Positions 12,592 through 56,059 of a stretch of DNA of 64,000 nucleotides are shown here, piece after piece; the stretch's first letter is position 1; each line of letters begins with the position of its first letter. The position numbers and the translations under genes were made by a program. The notes below the pieces were generated by a model. That model was not told the DNA's origin and did no database searches. It saw nothing but the letters and a program-made list of their open reading frames with translations. The DNA lies in NCBI GenBank assembly GCA_039980135.1, contig JBDXCV010000003.1, forward strand, positions 1,027,458 to 1,091,457, read 5' to 3'. This stretch comes from Alphaproteobacteria bacterium. GTDB taxonomy: Bacteria > Pseudomonadota > Alphaproteobacteria > UBA6615.

Positions 12592-14211
12592 CTATACCTC
12601 GATCAGAAGACGTTCCGGGTCCTCAATCGCCTGCTTGATCCGGACCAGGAAGGTCACCGCCTCGCGTCCGTCGATGATCCGATGGTCATAGCTCAACGCC
12701 AGATACATCATCGGGCGGATGACGATCTCGTCATCGATTACGACCGGCCGCTTGACGATATTGTGCATGCCAAGAATGCCCGACTGGGGCGGGTTCAGGA
12801 TCGGCGTCGAGAGCATCGAGCCGAAGATGCCGCCATTGGTGATCGTAAACGTGCCGCCCGTCAGTTCCTTCATGGTCAGCTTGCCGTCGCGCGCGCGTTG
12901 GCCGTATTCGGCGATCTGGCTCTCGATTCCGGCGAAGCTCTGCTTGTCGGCGTCGCGCAGGACCGGAACGACGAGGCCCTGTTCGCCGCCGACCGCGATC
13001 CCGATGTCGTAATAGTTCCGGTAGACGATCTCATCCCCGTGGATTTCGGCATTGACCGACGGCAGCTCCTTGAGCGCATTGATCGCGGCCTTCACGAAGA
13101 TGCTCATGAAACCCAGTTTCACGCCGTGCTTTTTCTCGAAATCGTCACGGTAGCGGGCGCGCAAATCCATCACGCCCTGCATGTCGACCTCGTTGAAGGT
13201 GGTCAGCATGGCGGCGGTGTTTTGCGCCTGCTTGAGGCGGGTGGCGACGGTCTGACGCAGTTTGGTCATCCGCACGCGTTCCTCGCCGCGCGGGTCTTCG
13301 GCACGCTCCGGCAGGTCGCCTGCCGATACGAAGCCGGCGGGTGTCGCCGGCGCTGCTGCGGCGGGCGCTGCCGTGCCGCCCGATGCCGGTGTGTCGAGAT
13401 GGCGCATCACGTCACCCTTTGTGATGCGTCCGTCGCGACCGGTGGCCGGAATGGCCGAGGGGTCGAGGCCGTTCTCGTCGACCAGCTTCTGTACGGCCGG
13501 GGAGAGGGGGTAGTCCAGATTTGCGCTCGCACCGGCGGCCGGCGCGGGGGCCTCTGCCGGTTCCGCCGCGGCGGGTGGCGTGTCGGCCTGCGCGGCCGCT
13601 GCCGGGGCTTCGCCCGTCGTGAAGCGGCCGACGACCGCGCCCACCTCCACGTCGACGCCCTCGCCGGCGATGATTTCGGTCAGGGTGCCGGCGCTGGGGG
13701 CTGGCAGTTCCGCGGTGACCTTGTCGGTTTCGATTTCGACCAGCGGTTCGTCGGCAGCGAAGCTTTCGCCAACCTGTTTCAGCCAGCGGGCGATGGTCCC
13801 TTCGGTGACGGACTCGCCCAGTTCCGGAACAGTTACATCCATGGTCTCGCCGCTTGTCGCAGCCGGGGCGGCGGCTGGTTCGGCGGACGCTGCTTCCGCG
13901 GGTTTATCCGCGGCCGGCGCGCTTTCCGTTTCCGTTGGTGTTTCCTCTGCTGCGGGGGCCGCCGTGGCGGTCGCATTCTCATCGATGGAGCCGATCACGG
14001 TGCCGACCTCGACATCCACACCCTCGTCGGCGCCGATCTCCGTGAGCACGCCCGTGCCCGGTGCAGGGACCTCGACCGTGACCTTGTCGGTCTCGATCTC
14101 GACCAGGGGTTCGTCGGCGGTGACGGCCTCACCGATCGCCTTGAACCAGCGCGCAACTGTGCCCTCGGTCACGGACTCGCCCATGTCGGGCACTTTGATC
14201 TCGATGGTCAT
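12592..14211 (-). CDS. sucB: Dihydrolipoamide succinyltransferase (E2 of 2-oxoglutarate dehydrogenase) with two tandem lipoyl domains
   Basis: Start taken at the internal [13 protein letters not shown] (ATG at 14209-14211); the upstream extension in the track is Arg/Pro-rich junk. Two lipoyl-lysine motifs (IETDKV x2), an E3-binding domain, and a catalytic DHRIIDG motif. Confidence 0.9.
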
Positions 14212-17200: not shown

Positions 17201-17278
17201 GTCCTAGCCGCGGTACGAGGCTGCGGTCCCTGGTTGCAAAGCGTTGGCGTCCCCCTCACCAACAGATCGGTGACCTAC

Positions 17279-18154
17279 CTAGCCCTTCATTGCCTTCATC
17301 ATCGTGGTGCCGAGCGCCGACGGCGACTCTGCGACCAGTATGCCCGCGGATTTCATGGCGTCCATTTTTGCATCCGCAGTGCCTTTACCGCCCGAAATGA
17401 TAGCGCCGGCATGGCCCATGCGTTTTCCGGGAGGTGCCGTGACGCCGGCGATGAACCCGGCGACCGGTTTTTTGATCTTCGACGATTTCAGGAAATCGGC
17501 GGCGTCTTCCTCGGCCGAACCGCCGATTTCGCCGATCATGATGATGCCCTCGGTCTCATCGTCCTCCAGGAACAAATCCAGGCAGTCGATGAAGTTGGTG
17601 CCGTTCACGGGGTCACCACCGATGCCGATGCAGGTGGTCTGGCCGAGCCCGACAGCGGTCGTCTGCGCGACGGCCTCGTAGGTCAGGGTGCCGGAACGCG
17701 AGACGATGCCGATATTGCCGCGCCGGTGAATATGGCCCGGCATGATGCCGATCTTGCATTCGTCCGGCGTGATGACGCCCGGGCAGTTCGGGCCGATCAG
17801 GCGTGTGTCGGAGCCGCTCAACGCGCGCTTGACGGCGACCATGTCGAGGACCGGGATGCCTTCGGTGATGCACACCACCAGCTCGACGCCTGCGTCGATG
17901 GCTTCGAGGATCGCGTCACCCGCGAACGGCGGCGGCACATAGATGACGGAGGCATTCGCGCCCGTCGTGCTGACGGCTTCGTCCACCGTGTTGAAAACAG
18001 GCAGATCGAGATGCGAGGTGCCGCCCTTGCCCGGCGTCACGCCGCCGACCATCTGGGTGCCGTAGGCGATGGCCTGCTCGGAATGAAAGGTGCCCTGGGC
18101 TCCGGTGAAGCCCTGGCAGATGACTTTGGTGTTTTTGCCGACGAGTACGGACAT
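17279..18154 (-). CDS. sucD: Succinyl-CoA synthetase alpha subunit
   Basis: 291 aa. CoA-binding N-terminus. Phosphohistidine loop GHAGAII. Confidence 0.95.
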
Positions 18155-24318: not shown

Positions 24319-24876
24319 ATGACCGACTACAACGAAAATGCCCGTGTACCGCATGTGTCGCGGGATGCGTTTCCCGCCGATCAGGTCGGTATCTACGACC
24401 ACATCATGGAAACCCGTAAGCTCGAATTCATGGCCGAACTCTTCGCCCGGATGGCCAGCAGCCCGGGCGCGCTCGAAGCGGTGGCGTCGGTCGGCGAGCA
24501 TGTCCGTTTCCACAGCGTGTTCGATGAGGTTCTGCGCGAGATGATCATCTGCACGGTCTCGAAGGAGGTCGGCAACTGGTACGAATGGACCCATCACATT
24601 CACCGGATGCCCGACGATATGCGCGCGGTGTGCGGCACGCCGGCTGCCGAGGATCTGCCCGCGCCCGTCGGCCCGGTTCTGCGTTTCTCCCGGATCGTCG
24701 CCGGCAACGGCAAGGCCGATGACGCGCTGATCGGGGAAATCCGTGCCACTCTGGGAAATCAGGGCCTCGTCGATCTGACGGTGATGGTCGGCTACTACCA
24801 GCTCATCGGCACCTTCTGCACGACGTTGCATGTGCCGATCGAAGACTCGATCGAACGCACGCCGATGCCGGACTGA
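24319..24876 (+). CDS. Carboxymuconolactone decarboxylase (AhpD-like) family protein
   Basis: 185 aa from ATG 24319 with GGAGGGG RBS; the track ORF extends further upstream. CMD-family fold with a conserved His (EWTHHIH). Confidence 0.6.
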   Translation: MTDYNENARVPHVSRDAFPADQVGIYDHIMETRKLEFMAELFARMASSPGALEAVASVGEHVRFHSVFDEVLREMIICTVSKEVGNWYEWTHHIHRMPDDMRAVCGTPAAEDLPAPVGPVLRFSRIVAGNGKADDALIGEIRATLGNQGLVDLTVMVGYYQLIGTFCTTLHVPIEDSIERTPMPD

Positions 24877-24892
24877 ACGATTCCAAACAGTT

Positions 24893-24985
24893 CGTCATAC
24901 GCGGGCTTGACCCGCGTATCTCGTGCGTCGCTGGACGGAAAACCAGAAGAGATGCCCGGAACAAGTCCGGGCATGACGGTGAAAG
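24893..24985. repeat. Intergenic double-hairpin repeat element, copy 1 (family with invariant ATGACGGTGAAAG)
   Basis: CGTCAT-[ACGCGGG cttgac CCGCGTAT]-CTC ... GAGATG-[CCCGGA a CAAGT CCGGG]-CATGACGGTGAAAG. Lies between convergent CMD and PhyH genes. Near-identical architecture recurs at 53352-53433. Confidence 0.7.
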
Positions 24986-24997
24986 GGCGGAAAACCC

Positions 24998-25801
24998 TTA
25001 CTCAGCCGCCGCGGTGTTTTCCCGGGCCAGCGCCAGCAGGCAGTCATCGTCGAGCGGTTCGATCGGCGCGAAGTCGCGGTGGGCGATCCATTCCTCGCGC
25101 TTGAACTGGCGGATGTGATTGTCCACATGGCACAGGCTGAGATAGACGATCACCCGGCCCCAGGGGCTGATGTTCGGCGCCGAAGCGTGCACCAGGTTCG
25201 AATGGAACAGCAGGACCGAGCCCGGCTTGCCTTTCGGCGCGATCATCCCGCCTTCGTCGGCGAGTCTGGCGACGGTTTCCTTGTCGAGGGTCCACAGCGG
25301 GTAGGAGGTGGTTTGCAGATCATGCCCGGCCTCGATCACGCCGCCCTTGTGGCTGCGGGGAATCAGGTAGAGCGGGCCGTTGAACTCGGTCACCTCGTCG
25401 ATGAACAGCGCGATGTTCATGGCGCGGGCCTTGGGCATCTTGTCGTCGCGCGCCCAGGTCCCGTAATCCTGATGCCATTGCCAGACGTCGCCGTCGAACG
25501 CGGCCTTTCCGTTTATCTTGTACTGGTGCATGTAGACGTTGCCGTCGAGCAGCTGCATTACCGGTTCGATCAGGCGGGGATGGCGGCCCAGGCGACGGAA
25601 CGCCTCATTGTAATAATGCGCGGCAAATGCGGTACGCACGGCCTCGCCGTTAGATTCGCGCCACACCTCGTCCCGGTCCATTGCGAAAATCGTCGGCAAT
25701 TCGGCCGCGAGGACATCCATTTCCGCCTGGCTGAAGACCTCGGGGAGGAACACCCAGCCCTCGGTGTCGAACTGTTCGAGTTGGTCCTTGGTCAGTTCCA
25801 T
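24998..25801 (-). CDS. Phytanoyl-CoA dioxygenase (PhyH) family Fe(II)/2-oxoglutarate dioxygenase, ectoine-hydroxylase-like
   Basis: Start at the internal MELTKDQLEQF (ATG 25799-25801). WQWHQDYGTWARDDKMP resembles the EctD signature WHSDFETWHxEDGMP. Several His/Asp metal ligands. Confidence 0.7.
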   Translation of the reverse strand: MELTKDQLEQFDTEGWVFLPEVFSQAEMDVLAAELPTIFAMDRDEVWRESNGEAVRTAFAAHYYNEAFRRLGRHPRLIEPVMQLLDGNVYMHQYKINGKAAFDGDVWQWHQDYGTWARDDKMPKARAMNIALFIDEVTEFNGPLYLIPRSHKGGVIEAGHDLQTTSYPLWTLDKETVARLADEGGMIAPKGKPGSVLLFHSNLVHASAPNISPWGRVIVYLSLCHVDNHIRQFKREEWIAHRDFAPIEPLDDDCLLALARENTAAAE

Positions 25802-51273: not shown

Positions 51274-52695
51274 TCACTCTCCCGCCCGGGACTTGATGAA
51301 CCGCGCCCGCGCTTCGGTGACGGCCGCGCGGACATTGTCCGGCGCGGTGCCCCCGAAGCTGGTCCGGCTGGCGACCGAGGCCTCGACCGTGAGGACATCG
51401 AAGACATCGGCGCTGATCCGCGCGTCCACGCCCTGCATGTCGTCGAGCGAGAGCTCGGCCAGCGTCACACCCTTTTCGTCGGCCAGCGCCACGACGGATC
51501 CTGTGATCGCGTGGGCGTCACGGAACGGTACGCCGGCGGCCCGGACCAGCCAGTCGGCCAGGTCCGTGGCCGTGGAATGGCCCTTGCCCGCCGCGGCGCG
51601 CATGTTTTCCGGCTGGGCTTGCATGTCGCCCACCATGCCGGTGATCGCGGCGAGTGCCAACGCGATGGAATCCGCCGCATCGAAGACCGGTTCCTTGTCT
51701 TCCTGCATGTCCTTGGAGTAGGCCAGCGGCAGGCCCTTCATGACCGTGAGGAGGCCGATCAGCGCGCCGTATACCCGGCCCGTCTTGGCCCGCGACAGTT
51801 CGGCCGCATCCGGATTGCGCTTCTGGGGCATCATCGAGCTGCCGGTCGTGTAGGCATCGCTCAGCGCGATGAACCGGAACCCGTCACTGCACCAGATCAC
51901 CAGCTCTTCGGCGAACCGCGAGACATGGGTCGTGCAGATCGCGGCGGCGGCAAGAAACTCAAGCGCGAAGTCCCGGTCCGACACCGCGTCCAGCGAATTG
52001 GCCATGGGCCGGTCGAAACCGAGGTCCGATGCTGTCGCGGCCCGGTCGATGGGAAAGGACGTCCCGGCGAGGGCGCCCGCACCCAACGGCGACTCGTTCA
52101 GCCGCGCCCGGGCATCCGCGAACCGGCCCCGGTCGCGCCCGAACATCTCCACATAGGCCAGCAGATGATGGCCGAAGGTGACCGGCTGGGCCGTCTGCAG
52201 ATGGGTGAAGCCGGGCATGACGGTGTCGGCATGGGCCTCCGCCTTGTCAATCAGCGCGGCCTGCAGCCCCGCGAGCTGTGCGTCGATCGCATCGATCTCG
52301 TCACGCACCCAAAGCCGGAAATCGGTCGCGACCTGGTCGTTGCGCGAACGCGCGGTGTGCAGCCGCCCGGCCGCATCGCCCACCAGCTCGCGCAGCCGTG
52401 ACTCGATGTTCATATGGATGTCTTCCAGCGCCACCTTGAACTCGAAGCTGCCCGCCGCGAGGTCTCGCGAAATCGTGTCTAGACCGTCGTTAAGGGCCTG
52501 CCCATCTTCAGCGGATAGGATGCCCTGTTCGACAAGCATCCGGGCATGCGCGCGCGACCCGGCAATATCCTGGGCGAAAAAGCGCTGGTCAAAGCCGATG
52601 GACGCATTGATGCGTTCCATGACCTCCGATGGTCCGGAGGTGAATCGGCCACCCCATTGCGCATTGGCTGGCTTGCGTGTGTCGTTTGGGCTCAT
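51274..52695 (-). CDS. argH: Argininosuccinate lyase
   Basis: Start at [18 protein letters not shown] (ATG 52693-52695). 473 aa. Fumarate-lyase signature [12 protein letters not shown]. Confidence 0.9.
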
Positions 52696-52735
52696 GGCTT
52701 TCGGGCTCGCATTACTGGGAGCGACGTTTAACGAT

Positions 52736-53323
52736 ATGATACGCCGGATGAAAGTTTTTCTGTTCACGACCTTCGCCACACTCGCGCTTGTGATCATGGC
52801 ACCATTGGGCCTGCAGACGGGTGCGGCCGCCGATTCCGGGCCCCCGATCGAGGGTCAGGTTCAGAATTACGAGCCGTTGCCGGCCCCTCTGGTGGTCCCC
52901 GATGTGACCGTTCTGGCCCAGAAAGACGGGCCGATCACGCTCGACCGGTTCAAGGGCAAGTTCGTGGTCCTGAACTTCTGGGCGACCTGGTGCGGGCCGT
53001 GTATTCGCGAGCTGCCGTCGCTGGACCGGCTGAATGCCGAGCTGGGCGGCGAGACGGCGCAGGTGGTTCTGATCAGCCAGGATCGCGGCGGTTTCAAGCA
53101 GACCGACCGGTTCCTGAAGAAACTCAAGGTCGATTTTCCGGATAACTTCATCGATGAGCGGCTGAAATTCTCCCGCGCGATCGGGGTGGTGTCCCTGCCG
53201 ACGACCATCCTGATCGGGCCCGACGGCAAGGAATTGGGGCGCCTGGTCGGCTCTGCCGAGTGGGATTCACCCGAAGCCCTCGACCTGGTCAACTGGTACA
53301 GGGACAAGGCTGGCGACAGCTAG
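52736..53323 (+). CDS. tlpA: TlpA-family periplasmic thiol:disulfide oxidoreductase
   Basis: [10 protein letters not shown] signal/anchor. Thioredoxin motif WATWCGPC. Divergent from argH as in Bradyrhizobium tlpA. The track ORF is over-extended upstream. Confidence 0.8.
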
Positions 53324-53351: not shown

Positions 53352-53433
53352 CGTCATGCCCTGGCTCGACCCGGGCATCTCTTTATCGGCGTGTATGAGA
53401 TGGCCGGATCAAGTCCGGCCATGACGGTGAATG
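53352..53433. repeat. Intergenic double-hairpin repeat element, copy 2
   Basis: CGTCAT-[GCCC tggctcgac CCGGGCAT]-CTC ... GAGATG-[GCCGGA t CAAGT CCGGC]-CATGACGGTGAATG. Same architecture as copy 1 with compensatory stem substitutions. Between convergent tlpA and hbd. Confidence 0.7.
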
Positions 53434-53442
53434 TTTTTCTGC

Positions 53443-54315
53443 CTACCGCGTCGGGACCGGCTCGTCGCCCGAATAGTCGTAGAAGCCTCGGCCTGTCTTG
53501 CGGCCCAGCCAGCCGGCCTCGACATATTTCACCAGCAGCGGGCAGGGGCGGTACTTCGAATCCGCCAGCCCTTCATACAGCACCTGCATGACCGCCAGGC
53601 AGGTGTCGAGGCCGATGAAGTCGGCGAGTTCGAACGGGCCCATCGGGTGGTTCGCGCCGAGCTTCATGGACTTGTCGATCGAGTCCACATTCCCGACACC
53701 CTCATACAGGGTGTAGACCGCCTCGTTGATCATCGGCAGCAGGATGCGGTTGACGATGAAGGCCGGGAAATCTTCCGAAATGGTGCCGGTCTTGCCGAGC
53801 TTCTTCGTCAGTTCCTGAACTTCCGTGAAGGTATGGTCGTCCGTCGCCAGCCCGCGGATCAGCTCGACCAGCTTCATCATCGGCACCGGGTTCATAAAAT
53901 GCATGCCCATGAACTTCTCCGGCCGGTCGGTGGCCGTCGCCAGGCGGGTGATCGAGATCGACGAGGTGTTCGATGCGATCAGTGCGCTGTCTTTCAGATG
54001 CGGACAGAGGCTTTCGAAGATCTTGACCTTCGTGTCCTCGTCTTCCGTCGCGGCCTCGATCACGAGGTCGCAGTCCGAAAAGGCATCGAGCCCGGTGCTG
54101 GTCGCGATGCGGGCCAGCGCAGCCGCCTTGTCTTCTTCCGCGATCAACGTCCGCTTGACCTGACGATCCATGTTGCCGTCGATCCGGCTGAGTGATTTTT
54201 CGAGCGCGTCTGCGTCGATATCAACGATGACCACGTCATGTTCCGCGAGCGCGCAGACATGGGCGATGCCGCTGCCCATTTGGCCGGCGCCGATGACGCC
54301 TATCTTGTTCAGCAT
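53443..54315 (-). CDS. hbd: 3-hydroxybutyryl-CoA dehydrogenase
   Basis: 290 aa. IGVIGAGQMGSGIA Rossmann. 3HCDH N- and C-terminal domains. Confidence 0.9.
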   Translation of the reverse strand: MLNKIGVIGAGQMGSGIAHVCALAEHDVVIVDIDADALEKSLSRIDGNMDRQVKRTLIAEEDKAAALARIATSTGLDAFSDCDLVIEAATEDEDTKVKIFESLCPHLKDSALIASNTSSISITRLATATDRPEKFMGMHFMNPVPMMKLVELIRGLATDDHTFTEVQELTKKLGKTGTISEDFPAFIVNRILLPMINEAVYTLYEGVGNVDSIDKSMKLGANHPMGPFELADFIGLDTCLAVMQVLYEGLADSKYRPCPLLVKYVEAGWLGRKTGRGFYDYSGDEPVPTR

Positions 54316-55310: not shown

Positions 55311-56059
55311 CAGATGACCCTCGCTTCGTTCTTGAGCTTGTCGACGAGTTCGGCGACGGTCTCGACCATCACGCCGGCCTCGCGTTTGGCCGGTTCCTCG
55401 ACCTTGAGCGTGGTCAGGCGGGGCGCGATATCGACGCCGAGTTCTTCGGGGGTCAGCGCGTCGATCGGCTTCTTCTTCGCCTTCATGATGTTCGGCAGCG
55501 AGGCGTAGCGCGGCTCGTTGAGGCGCAGATCCGTGGTCACGATCGCCGGCAGGTTGATGTCGATGTTCTCCAGCCCGCCGTCGATCTCGCGGGTCACCTT
55601 GGCGGTACCGTCGCCGAGCTCGATCTCCGAGGCGAAGGTCGCCTGGGGCCAGCCCAGCAGCGCGGCGAGCATCTGGCCGGTCTGGTTGGAATCGTCGTCG
55701 ATCGCCTGCTTGCCGAGGATCACCAGCTCGGGAGATTCCCGCTCGACCAGCGCCATGAGAAGCTTGGCCACGGCCAGCGGTTCCAGTTCGTCATCGCTCG
55801 CCACATGGATGCCGCGGTCGGCGCCCATCGCCAGTGCGGTCCGGATCGTCTCCTGGCACTGGGCCACGCCCAGCGACACCGCGATGACCTCTTCGGCCTT
55901 GCCGGCTTCCTTCAGGCGCACGGCCTCTTCCACCGCGATTTCATCGAAAGGGTTCATCGACATCTTGACGTTGGATGTCTCGACGCCGGTGCCGTCGGAT
56001 TTGACCCGCACCTTGACGTTGTAGTCGATAACCCGCTTGACGGGGATCAGCAGTTTCAT
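55310..56059 (-). CDS. etfB: Electron transfer flavoprotein beta subunit
   Basis: 249 aa. [20 protein letters not shown]-terminus. Overlaps etfA by 1 nt. Confidence 0.9.

Follow-up and report, generated by a model that had tools for sequence, protein, structure and literature searches.

The repeats closest to the element described here are the CGTC-tagged repetitive extragenic palindromic sequences (REPs) of Di Nocera, De Gregorio & Rocco 2013 (PMC3733652). According to the sections of that paper drawn on here, the hairpin of the CGTC superfamily carries an unpaired terminal CGTC (or TGTC/CCTC), a stem of 8-9 bp in which complementary A-T and T-A pairs almost always come first, a loop of 4-5 nt belonging to few types, and a 3-nt tail that is mostly CCA. 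Hosts are mainly Alphaproteobacteria, the dispersed copies number from tens to thousands, and copy number varies 5-8-fold among strains. The units are arranged as head-to-head dimers whose tags face outward (in two of the four families most dimers are heterodimers), and they adjoin 3' ends between convergent or unidirectional open reading frames (ORFs). The same sections equate Neisseria dRS3 with CGTC-1, and Rickettsia RPE-6 and RPE-4 with CGTC-1 and CGTC-4, respectively. In this study, we analyzed a stretch of 64,000 nt from an Alphaproteobacteria bacterium (assembly GCA_039980135.1, contig JBDXCV010000003.1, positions 1,027,458 to 1,091,457; hereafter the window, from whose first letter all positions are counted), and in particular the block at 53352-53426, which is very probably one copy of a CGTC-tagged REP in the form of a head-to-head heterodimer.

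Other described systems share part of this organization. REPINs (REP doublets forming hairpins) and GTAG REPs (Bertels & Rainey 2011, PMC3116915; Nunvar et al. 2010, PMC2817692) are likewise GC-rich palindromes with an unpaired 4-nt tag, and they also occur as inverted intergenic doublets whose subtypes differ by complementary stem changes. REPINs, however, carry a GTAG tag and are mobilized by REP-associated tyrosine transposases (RAYTs), whereas the family studied here carries CGTC, its doublet arms are usually mismatched and no RAYT was found in the loci searched (see below). Bacterial interspersed mosaic elements (BIMEs) of E. coli and related mosaics alternate REP subtypes with variable linkers, as the dimers of the window do, but BIMEs are of GTAG type, with gyrase/IHF binding and RAYT, while the window holds a single doublet per site and no clusters. 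E. coli REPs have been reported to stabilize mRNA and to attenuate transcription, as cited in the sections of PMC3733652 drawn on here and in PMC5082802. In addition, Br-REP1 of Bradyrhizobium japonicum (Hahn et al. 2016, PMC5082802) consists of three stem-loops, lies in the overlapping 3' untranslated regions (UTRs) of convergent genes and is transcribed on both strands into complementary small transcripts. Judged from the published consensus, its core CCGGAATCTCGAGATTCCGG appears to contain the ...AT-CTC/GAG-AT... junction expected where two units meet in inverted orientation; the tails of Br-REP1, however, abut and make the junction itself palindromic, whereas 15-26 nt of unrelated spacer separate the tails in the window.

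Anatomy of the element and its assignment to the CGTC superfamily

The window contains two dimers, and hence four units, 28 kb apart: copy 2, which is the element of interest, and copy 1 (Table 1). On the + strand, copy 2 reads CGTC, ATGCCCTGG-CTCGA-CCCGGGCAT, CTC, TTTATCGGCGTGTAT, GAG, ATGGCCGGA-TCAAG-TCCGGCCAT and GACG, and copy 1 reads CGTC, ATACGCGGG-CTTGA-CCCGCGTAT, CTC, a 26-nt spacer, GAG, ATGCCCGGA-ACAAG-TCCGGGCAT and GACG. Both copies of the initial annotation, their common block order and their spacers of 15 and 26 nt were thereby found again. Each copy is an inverted doublet in which the right half mirrors the unit type of the left half, with the tags outside and with a left stem that differs from the right stem. 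The CGTC tags lie at 53352-55 (+), 53426-23 (-), 24893-96 (+) and 24978-75 (-), and all four units have 9-bp stems starting with AT and ending with AT, three of them perfect and the left one of copy 2 with a single T·C mismatch at pair 7 of 9. The loop sequences, given in the orientation of each unit, are CTCGA, CTTGA, CTTGA and CTTGT. The plan of the unit is an outer unpaired CGTC, a 9-bp stem beginning A-T/T-A, a loop CTYGA and an inner CTC tail.

This anatomy corresponds in every point to CGTC REPs as defined in PMC3733652, and we therefore assigned the window element to that superfamily. The two agree in the tag, the 9-bp stem starting with AT, the 5-nt loop and the 3-nt tail, and they agree as well in head-to-head heterodimers, location at 3' ends, alphaproteobacterial hosts and the lack of a neighboring transposase. 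The element has every structural feature of the CGTC superfamily, and its sole departure is the tail, which is the variant CTC in the window units and mostly CCA in the published ones. Published spacers measure 20-100 bp, and those of the window are at the short end. By the 9-bp stem and 5-nt loop the nearest types would be CGTC-3 or CGTC-4, and Bosea-like hosts such as those met below are outside the strain list in the sections of PMC3733652 drawn on here. The CGTC superfamily has thus been known since 2013, and what is new is a copy with the CTC-tail variant from a Bosea-like host; four 12-13-mers of the unit gave no match in the full text of the literature.

GC-rich genomes are rich in short palindromes, and 630 inverted pairs are listed in the window, which would be the ground for regarding the element as a chance pair of GC-rich inverted repeats. 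Degenerate half-patterns, however, match only two places in the window, where 0 matches are expected (100 shuffles), and apart from the four units the 64 kb contain no AT-N7-N5-N7-AT hairpin with one mismatch or fewer. Furthermore, a covariance model trained solely on units of other genomes (model R1) detected exactly these four units in the window, with 44.6-50.1 bits and E of ~1e-12 to 1e-13, the next match having 15.6 bits; in copy 2 it scored 53352-53381 (+) at 44.6 bits and 53397-53426 (-) at 50.0 bits. Together with at least 120 loci of identical architecture in other genomes, the shuffles and model R1 refute a chance origin, the probability of which is practically negligible.

The family in other genomes and its conserved structure

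One genome per species was scanned for CGTCAT-N19-ATCTC-N5-35-GAGAT-N19-ATGACG, a pattern that leaves the 19-nt hairpin bodies free and the stems unconstrained. The scan yielded at least 120 loci (numbered with the prefix L) holding at least 125 dimers, against ~2 chance matches expected by our own estimate, and the family counts given here come from the matches listed. Among these, the hosts are mostly Bosea, Microvirga, Xanthobacteraceae and unnamed Alphaproteobacteria, with a minority of Rickettsiales, Gammaproteobacteria, Bacteroidota and Chloroflexota, and related genomes contribute several loci each. The gene order of the window is common to several Bosea-like loci, at 72-79% nucleotide identity, from which the window was placed in a relative of these within the Hyphomicrobiales.

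Pairing was evaluated in 254 units from 127 dimers, including the two dimers of the window. At the seven variable stem pairs, 94.3% of the cells were Watson-Crick, compared with a mean of 58% and a maximum of 60% when the 3' arms were shuffled, and the sample comprised 77 distinct 5' arms with three or four pair types at every variable pair. The covariation score of 130 distinct units was 0.629, compared with 0.129 for shuffled units and at most 0.125 when the partners were slid; this set had been pre-filtered for at least 8/9 pairs, and only its variation measures are informative. The loops are of few kinds, CTTGA being the commonest (118 of 254 units) and CTTGT occurring in 43, and their polarity is fixed relative to the tag. 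Folding of the window copies beat shuffled controls as well, with z of -3.0 to -5.7 (dinucleotide shuffles, both strands, RNA and DNA parameters). The proposal that the copies belong to a repeat family with two hairpins as its conserved structure is supported by these results. Pairing between the left arm and the right arm, by comparison, reached only 72% in the 127 dimers, of which 8 were homodimers and 119 were heterodimers. Because local pairing (94%) far exceeds long-range pairing (72%) and homodimers are few, the conserved structure consists of two independent hairpins.

This result bears directly on the possibility that the element is a strict REPIN, a dimer that folds as one long hairpin and is copied whole by a single-copy RAYT (HUH Y1) encoded elsewhere in the genome. 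The head-to-head doublet architecture agrees with such a view, and so does thermodynamics: folded as isolated RNAs with RNAfold, copy 2 (either strand) and copy 1 (+ strand) reach their energy minimum as a single long imperfect hairpin, and restricting the fold to local pairs costs 4-14 kcal/mol on each of the four strands. Thermodynamics alone, however, would mislead on the conserved structure. Non-orthologous dimers of Bosea that are alike throughout, structured spacer included (e.g., L003 and L023), and the presence/absence polymorphism at an orthologous site described below also speak for copying of whole dimers. On the other hand, left-right pairing of 72% against 94% locally, the arms of 119 of 127 dimers that do not match each other, a CGTC tag in place of the GTAG cleaved by RAYTs, and the absence of a RAYT from both the searched loci and the consulted literature (see below) all stand against it, and we regard a strict REPIN as quite unlikely.

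A separate group, a minority of the matches, was noticed at L018, L026, L027, L049, L053, L085 and L109 (Bacteroidota, a metagenome-assembled genome of Betaproteobacteria, and others). These sequences retain the CGTCAT...ATCTC flanks and the body length of 19 nt but form long inverted repeats with perfect or nearly perfect arms. In their half-units, pairs 10-22 and 11-21 are G·A/A·G (e.g., CGTCATCCTGAGCCGAAGGCGAAGGATCTC), where the other family units have Watson-Crick pairs. The group appears to be a subfamily of its own, found in distant phyla and sharing the ends of the other units.

Stem differences between copies and between orthologous sites

The initial annotation had read the stem differences between the two copies as compensatory, each substitution being mirrored on the partner strand, and as direct evidence of structural constraint. 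From copy 1 to copy 2, hairpin 1 changes from A-T to G-C at position 3 and from G-C to C-G at position 5, and hairpin 2 changes from C-G to G-C at position 4, all of them mirrored; at position 7 of hairpin 1, the change from G-C to T·C is unmirrored, and the statement thus holds for three of the four differences. The window units represent four stem types (ACGCGGG, GCCCGGA, GCCCGGG-like and GGCCGGA), each of which was found again in other genomes. Since all four recur, the mirrored differences are mostly differences between old subtypes and would not have been fixed in place, and the window copies are, on the sequence comparison, paralogous dimers assembled from four unit types. The observation is accordingly confirmed and its first interpretation partly supported: a family-wide constraint on palindromy stands, whereas the two copies, being paralogous subtypes, are no direct evidence of compensatory evolution, and a cause at the RNA level is not indicated.

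The right unit of copy 2 matches Skermanella plasmids with 100% identity over 28-30 nt, at five unannotated places per plasmid. Within the plasmid collection, short unannotated matches were obtained in two Skermanella plasmids only, and no depositor annotation naming the element was found there. Skermanella is a genus of Rhodospirillales. Unit subtypes identical to those of the window therefore appear also on plasmids, in a different order of bacteria.

Changes that occurred in place were sought in orthologous dimers, defined by matches of both flanks, of which there were 12 pairs with flanks 84-97% identical. Stems differed at 5.1% of sites and loops at 17.5%, and in several pairs the spacer was wholly different with the units identical or nearly so. 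The in-place stem changes comprised 5 uncompensated singles and 6 compensated doubles, all six doubles coming from one locus, L076 versus L030 and L094, and stepwise in-place compensation was not seen among the 12 pairs. At this locus (L076:1560-1640 vs L030:386-467 and L094:1979-2060, flanks ~93% identical), both stem types and the whole spacer differ. The coincidence of the compensated doubles with a replaced spacer suggests replacement of the whole element or gene conversion at the L076 site, and not gradual change. In three further comparisons with flanks 84-87% identical (L035:3023-3105 vs L087:1025-1106, L034:1795-1872 vs L092:1761-1842, and L068:3083-3177 vs L086:6153-6244), the units are identical or almost so and the spacers are unrelated in both sequence and length. 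Units thus appear to be under far stronger constraint, or homogenization, than spacers.

Genomic position, mobility and possible functions

The dimers were located in 55 unidirectional, 25 convergent and 5 divergent gene contexts, against a background of 372, 114 and 113 for all gene pairs of the same loci, counts that are rough, as the heuristic gene calls behind them label both window copies wrongly as unidirectional. Divergent contexts thus make up 6% of dimers and 19% of the background, and the median distance from the upstream stop, by the same heuristic calls, is 28 nt. This distribution agrees with the one published for CGTC REPs. Copy 2 itself lies between a tlpA-like ORF and a convergent ORF for 3-hydroxyacyl/butyryl-CoA dehydrogenase (hbd), for which both the Pfam domains and the ORF ends bear out the initial annotation, and it occupies most of the 119-bp gap between the converging stops. 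At another intergenic site, the dimers of the Bosea-like genomes L030, L094 and L076 (coordinates above) have an empty orthologous counterpart at ~17240-17290 of the window, and this presence/absence would fit gain or loss of whole elements. Clusters of units at L070 and L064 were considered as possible locations of a transposase; the ORFs between the units encode a DNA ligase, a helix-hairpin-helix (HHH) protein, a cyclase and an AAA ATPase, and these ordinary genes rule out a transposase there.

The family is large and dispersed and is composed of independently folding tagged hairpins that are tolerated almost only just 3' of genes; its presence varies between relatives, and its units are conserved relative to its spacers. 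Considering these properties and the analogy with GTAG REPs, there is about an even chance that the family spreads, or once spread, as DNA. A putative enzyme would read the hairpin together with the CGTC tag in single-stranded DNA, as RAYT does on GTAG REPs, and only the palindromic units would be copied; such selective copying would produce mirrored, apparently compensatory differences between subtypes. In addition, both strands may be transcribed into the element, so that the mRNAs of both the tlpA-like gene and hbd would carry the hairpins in their 3' UTRs, a possibility that we hold tentatively and rate somewhat below even. There, the hairpins would block 3'-to-5' exonucleases or damp convergent read-through, as E. 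coli REPs do, and such an effect would be a by-product and not the reason for the existence of the element.

Several points weigh against this account of a mobile DNA repeat whose hairpins reach the 3' UTRs. The tag and the tail were fixed by the search pattern in the main sample. However, among 71 further AT-N7-N5-N7-AT hairpins outside the pattern matches, 50 carry CGTC, so that the tag is no artefact of the pattern; the tails of these hairpins include CTC in 22, which is the commonest, and CCA in 12. The gene calls came from a crude composition ORF heuristic (GC1 > GC2), which missed the TlpA-like gene. The presence/absence polymorphism concerns one diverged site, where loss is possible instead of insertion and where the flanks are too diverged for target boundaries. 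No homologues of RAYT or of the related TIRYT were found by tblastn with four queries in the window and the at least 120 loci (~1 Mb), the sections of PMC3733652 drawn on here describe CGTC REPs without transposase association and without a RAYT gene flanked by CGTC units, and Y1 transposases are few in Alphaproteobacteria (PMC6006769). At the RNA level, no consistent U-tract was present 3' of the hairpins in either window copy, and G·T mismatches were no commoner than A·C mismatches, either overall (21 vs 20, small numbers) or on the sense strand in unidirectional contexts (5 vs 6), so that there is no RNA-specific wobble signal.

These last results also bear on the view that the element is primarily a functional RNA, that is, a 3'-UTR stabilizer, a bidirectional terminator/attenuator or a source of small RNA for the tlpA-like gene and hbd. 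Its position 28 and 16 nt from the converging stops, filling most of the gap, would suit such a role, as would the bias of the family to sites just after stops and against divergent gaps, the stable hairpins (z down to -5.7), and the units conserved in orthologues with drifting spacers; moreover, complementary small transcripts arise from related repeats located in convergent 3' UTRs of Bradyrhizobium (PMC5082802), and the reported effects of E. coli REPs on mRNA stability and transcription point in the same direction. Rfam, however, gave 0 matches at the gathering threshold across the whole window, and at E up to 10 the locus matched generic miRNA-like hairpins only (best mir-4904, 17.7 bits against a threshold of 100). 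An intrinsic terminator was considered and rejected, as no U-tract follows the units and the terminator-like matches are weak and differ between the copies, falling over the left hairpin (+) in copy 2 and on an alternative stem at the junction of spacer and right unit (-) in copy 1. Furthermore, a stabilizer needs no conserved unpaired tag, CTC tail or fixed loop, all three of which are conserved, and G·U pairs show no excess over A·C. Uneven copy numbers among related strains also argue against a general host function in the sections of PMC3733652 drawn on here. A primarily RNA-level function is therefore rather unlikely in our judgment.

Conservation of the units could alternatively reflect recognition by a protein of the host (for instance gyrase, or a protein of the nucleoid or of recombination), which would read the tag together with a cruciform or hairpin at the DNA level, the site being maintained by the host. 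Palindromy that is equal on both strands, unpaired tags and a loop conserved across orders, units kept in place with replaced spacers, and the lack of a transposase for the CGTC family in the sections of PMC3733652 drawn on here are compatible with this view; but the present data point to no such protein, and presence/absence together with the 5-8-fold copy variation fit parasitic or neutral DNA better, so that we consider it very unlikely. A related reading, to which we assign a low probability, is that the units, instead of being relics of a lost transposon in decay, are retained by selection as sites for a candidate widespread protein that would recognize a 9-bp hairpin by its CTTGA loop, unpaired CGTC tag and CTC or CCA tail. 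This would explain why orthologous units stay nearly unchanged while spacers are replaced, why groups as distant as Alphaproteobacteria and Bacteroidota have the tag, the tail and a body of 19 nt in common, and why no dedicated transposase has been found for CGTC REPs.

For annotation, our preferred reading as a CGTC REP means that the 75-bp intergenic block formed by copy 2 is to be described as a REP (CGTC-type) dimer and not as a novel structured RNA, and that the mirrored differences of copy 2 should not be taken as RNA evolution in place. More generally, CGTC REPs are a large REP superfamily without a known mobilizing enzyme. Conserved local hairpins, conserved tag, tail and loop, spacers that turn over and the lack of a G·U bias all bear on the question of the mobilizer, and these comparative data sharpen it without answering it. 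Copy 2 has no privileged place for settling what mobilizes or maintains CGTC REPs.

Features of the locus and other sites in the window

The coordinates of the element, of its neighbors and of related copies are collected in Table 1.

Table 1. Features of the two REP dimers, the genes flanking copy 2 and the plasmid matches (window positions unless an accession is given)
Feature	Position	Strand	Details
Whole element, copy 2	53352-53426		Head-to-head heterodimer: two inverted tagged hairpin units and spacer
Left-unit CGTC tag	53352..53355	+	Unpaired, outer end of dimer; from sequence and model R1
Left REP hairpin	53356..53378	+	Stem ATGCCCTGG / CCCGGGCAT, 9 pairs, loop CTCGA
Left-unit CTC tail	53379..53381	+	Inner end; from sequence
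Spacer TTTATCGGCGTGTAT	53382..53396	.	15 nt; not evidently similar to that of copy 1 (26 nt)
Right REP unit	53397..53426	-	CGTC tag 53426-53423, hairpin 53422-53400, CTC tail 53399-53397
Right-unit hairpin	53400-53422	-	ATGGCCGGA / TCCGGCCAT, perfect 9-bp stem, loop CTTGA on - strand
GTGAA flank	53427..53431	+	Directly outside right-hand tag; common to copy 1 (24979-24983)
Upstream gene, TlpA-like thioredoxin-fold protein	52178..53323	+	Pfam Redoxin 7.8e-19, AhpC-TSA 4.9e-18
Convergent gene, 3-hydroxyacyl/butyryl-CoA dehydrogenase (hbd)	53443..54315	-	Pfam 3HCDH_N 1.6e-61, 3HCDH 3.5e-35
Copy 1 dimer	24893..24978		Units 24893-24922 (+) and 24949-24978 (-); 26-nt spacer; model R1 49.1 and 50.1 bits
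Skermanella plasmid match	NZ_CP067422.1 340271-340300		
Skermanella plasmid match	NZ_CP086108.1 18035-18062		

The start codon of the TlpA-like ORF is uncertain; its stop is 28 nt before the element. The hbd stop is 16 nt from the element on the other side, and etfA and etfB lie upstream of hbd on the same strand, ETF domains being present in the next two ORFs. Copy 1 is flanked by a + ORF ending at 24876 and a PhyH-family - ORF ending at 24998, with stops 16 and 19 nt away. The GTGAA flank that the two copies have in common is not general among family members of other genomes, and it may represent a genome-specific unit subtype, a preferred target or chance.

The segment 56076-56110 (TATATGGCCCGTGACATTGCGGGGATGACGGTGAAAG), which lies upstream of etfB (-) and 17 nt from its start at 56059, has the 13-mer ATGACGGTGAAAG in common with the right end of copy 1, for which the chance expectation in 64 kb is ~0.002 by our estimate. 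As a third, degenerate copy on the + strand it was rejected, its stem being out of register and model R1 being silent at E up to 10; the segment could represent a unit in decay or a motif that the flanks have in common. In addition, two direct repeats of 220 nt at 13627-13846 and 13990-14209, 71% identical and 363 nt apart, are unrelated to the REP family and probably represent an internal duplication within a coding region.

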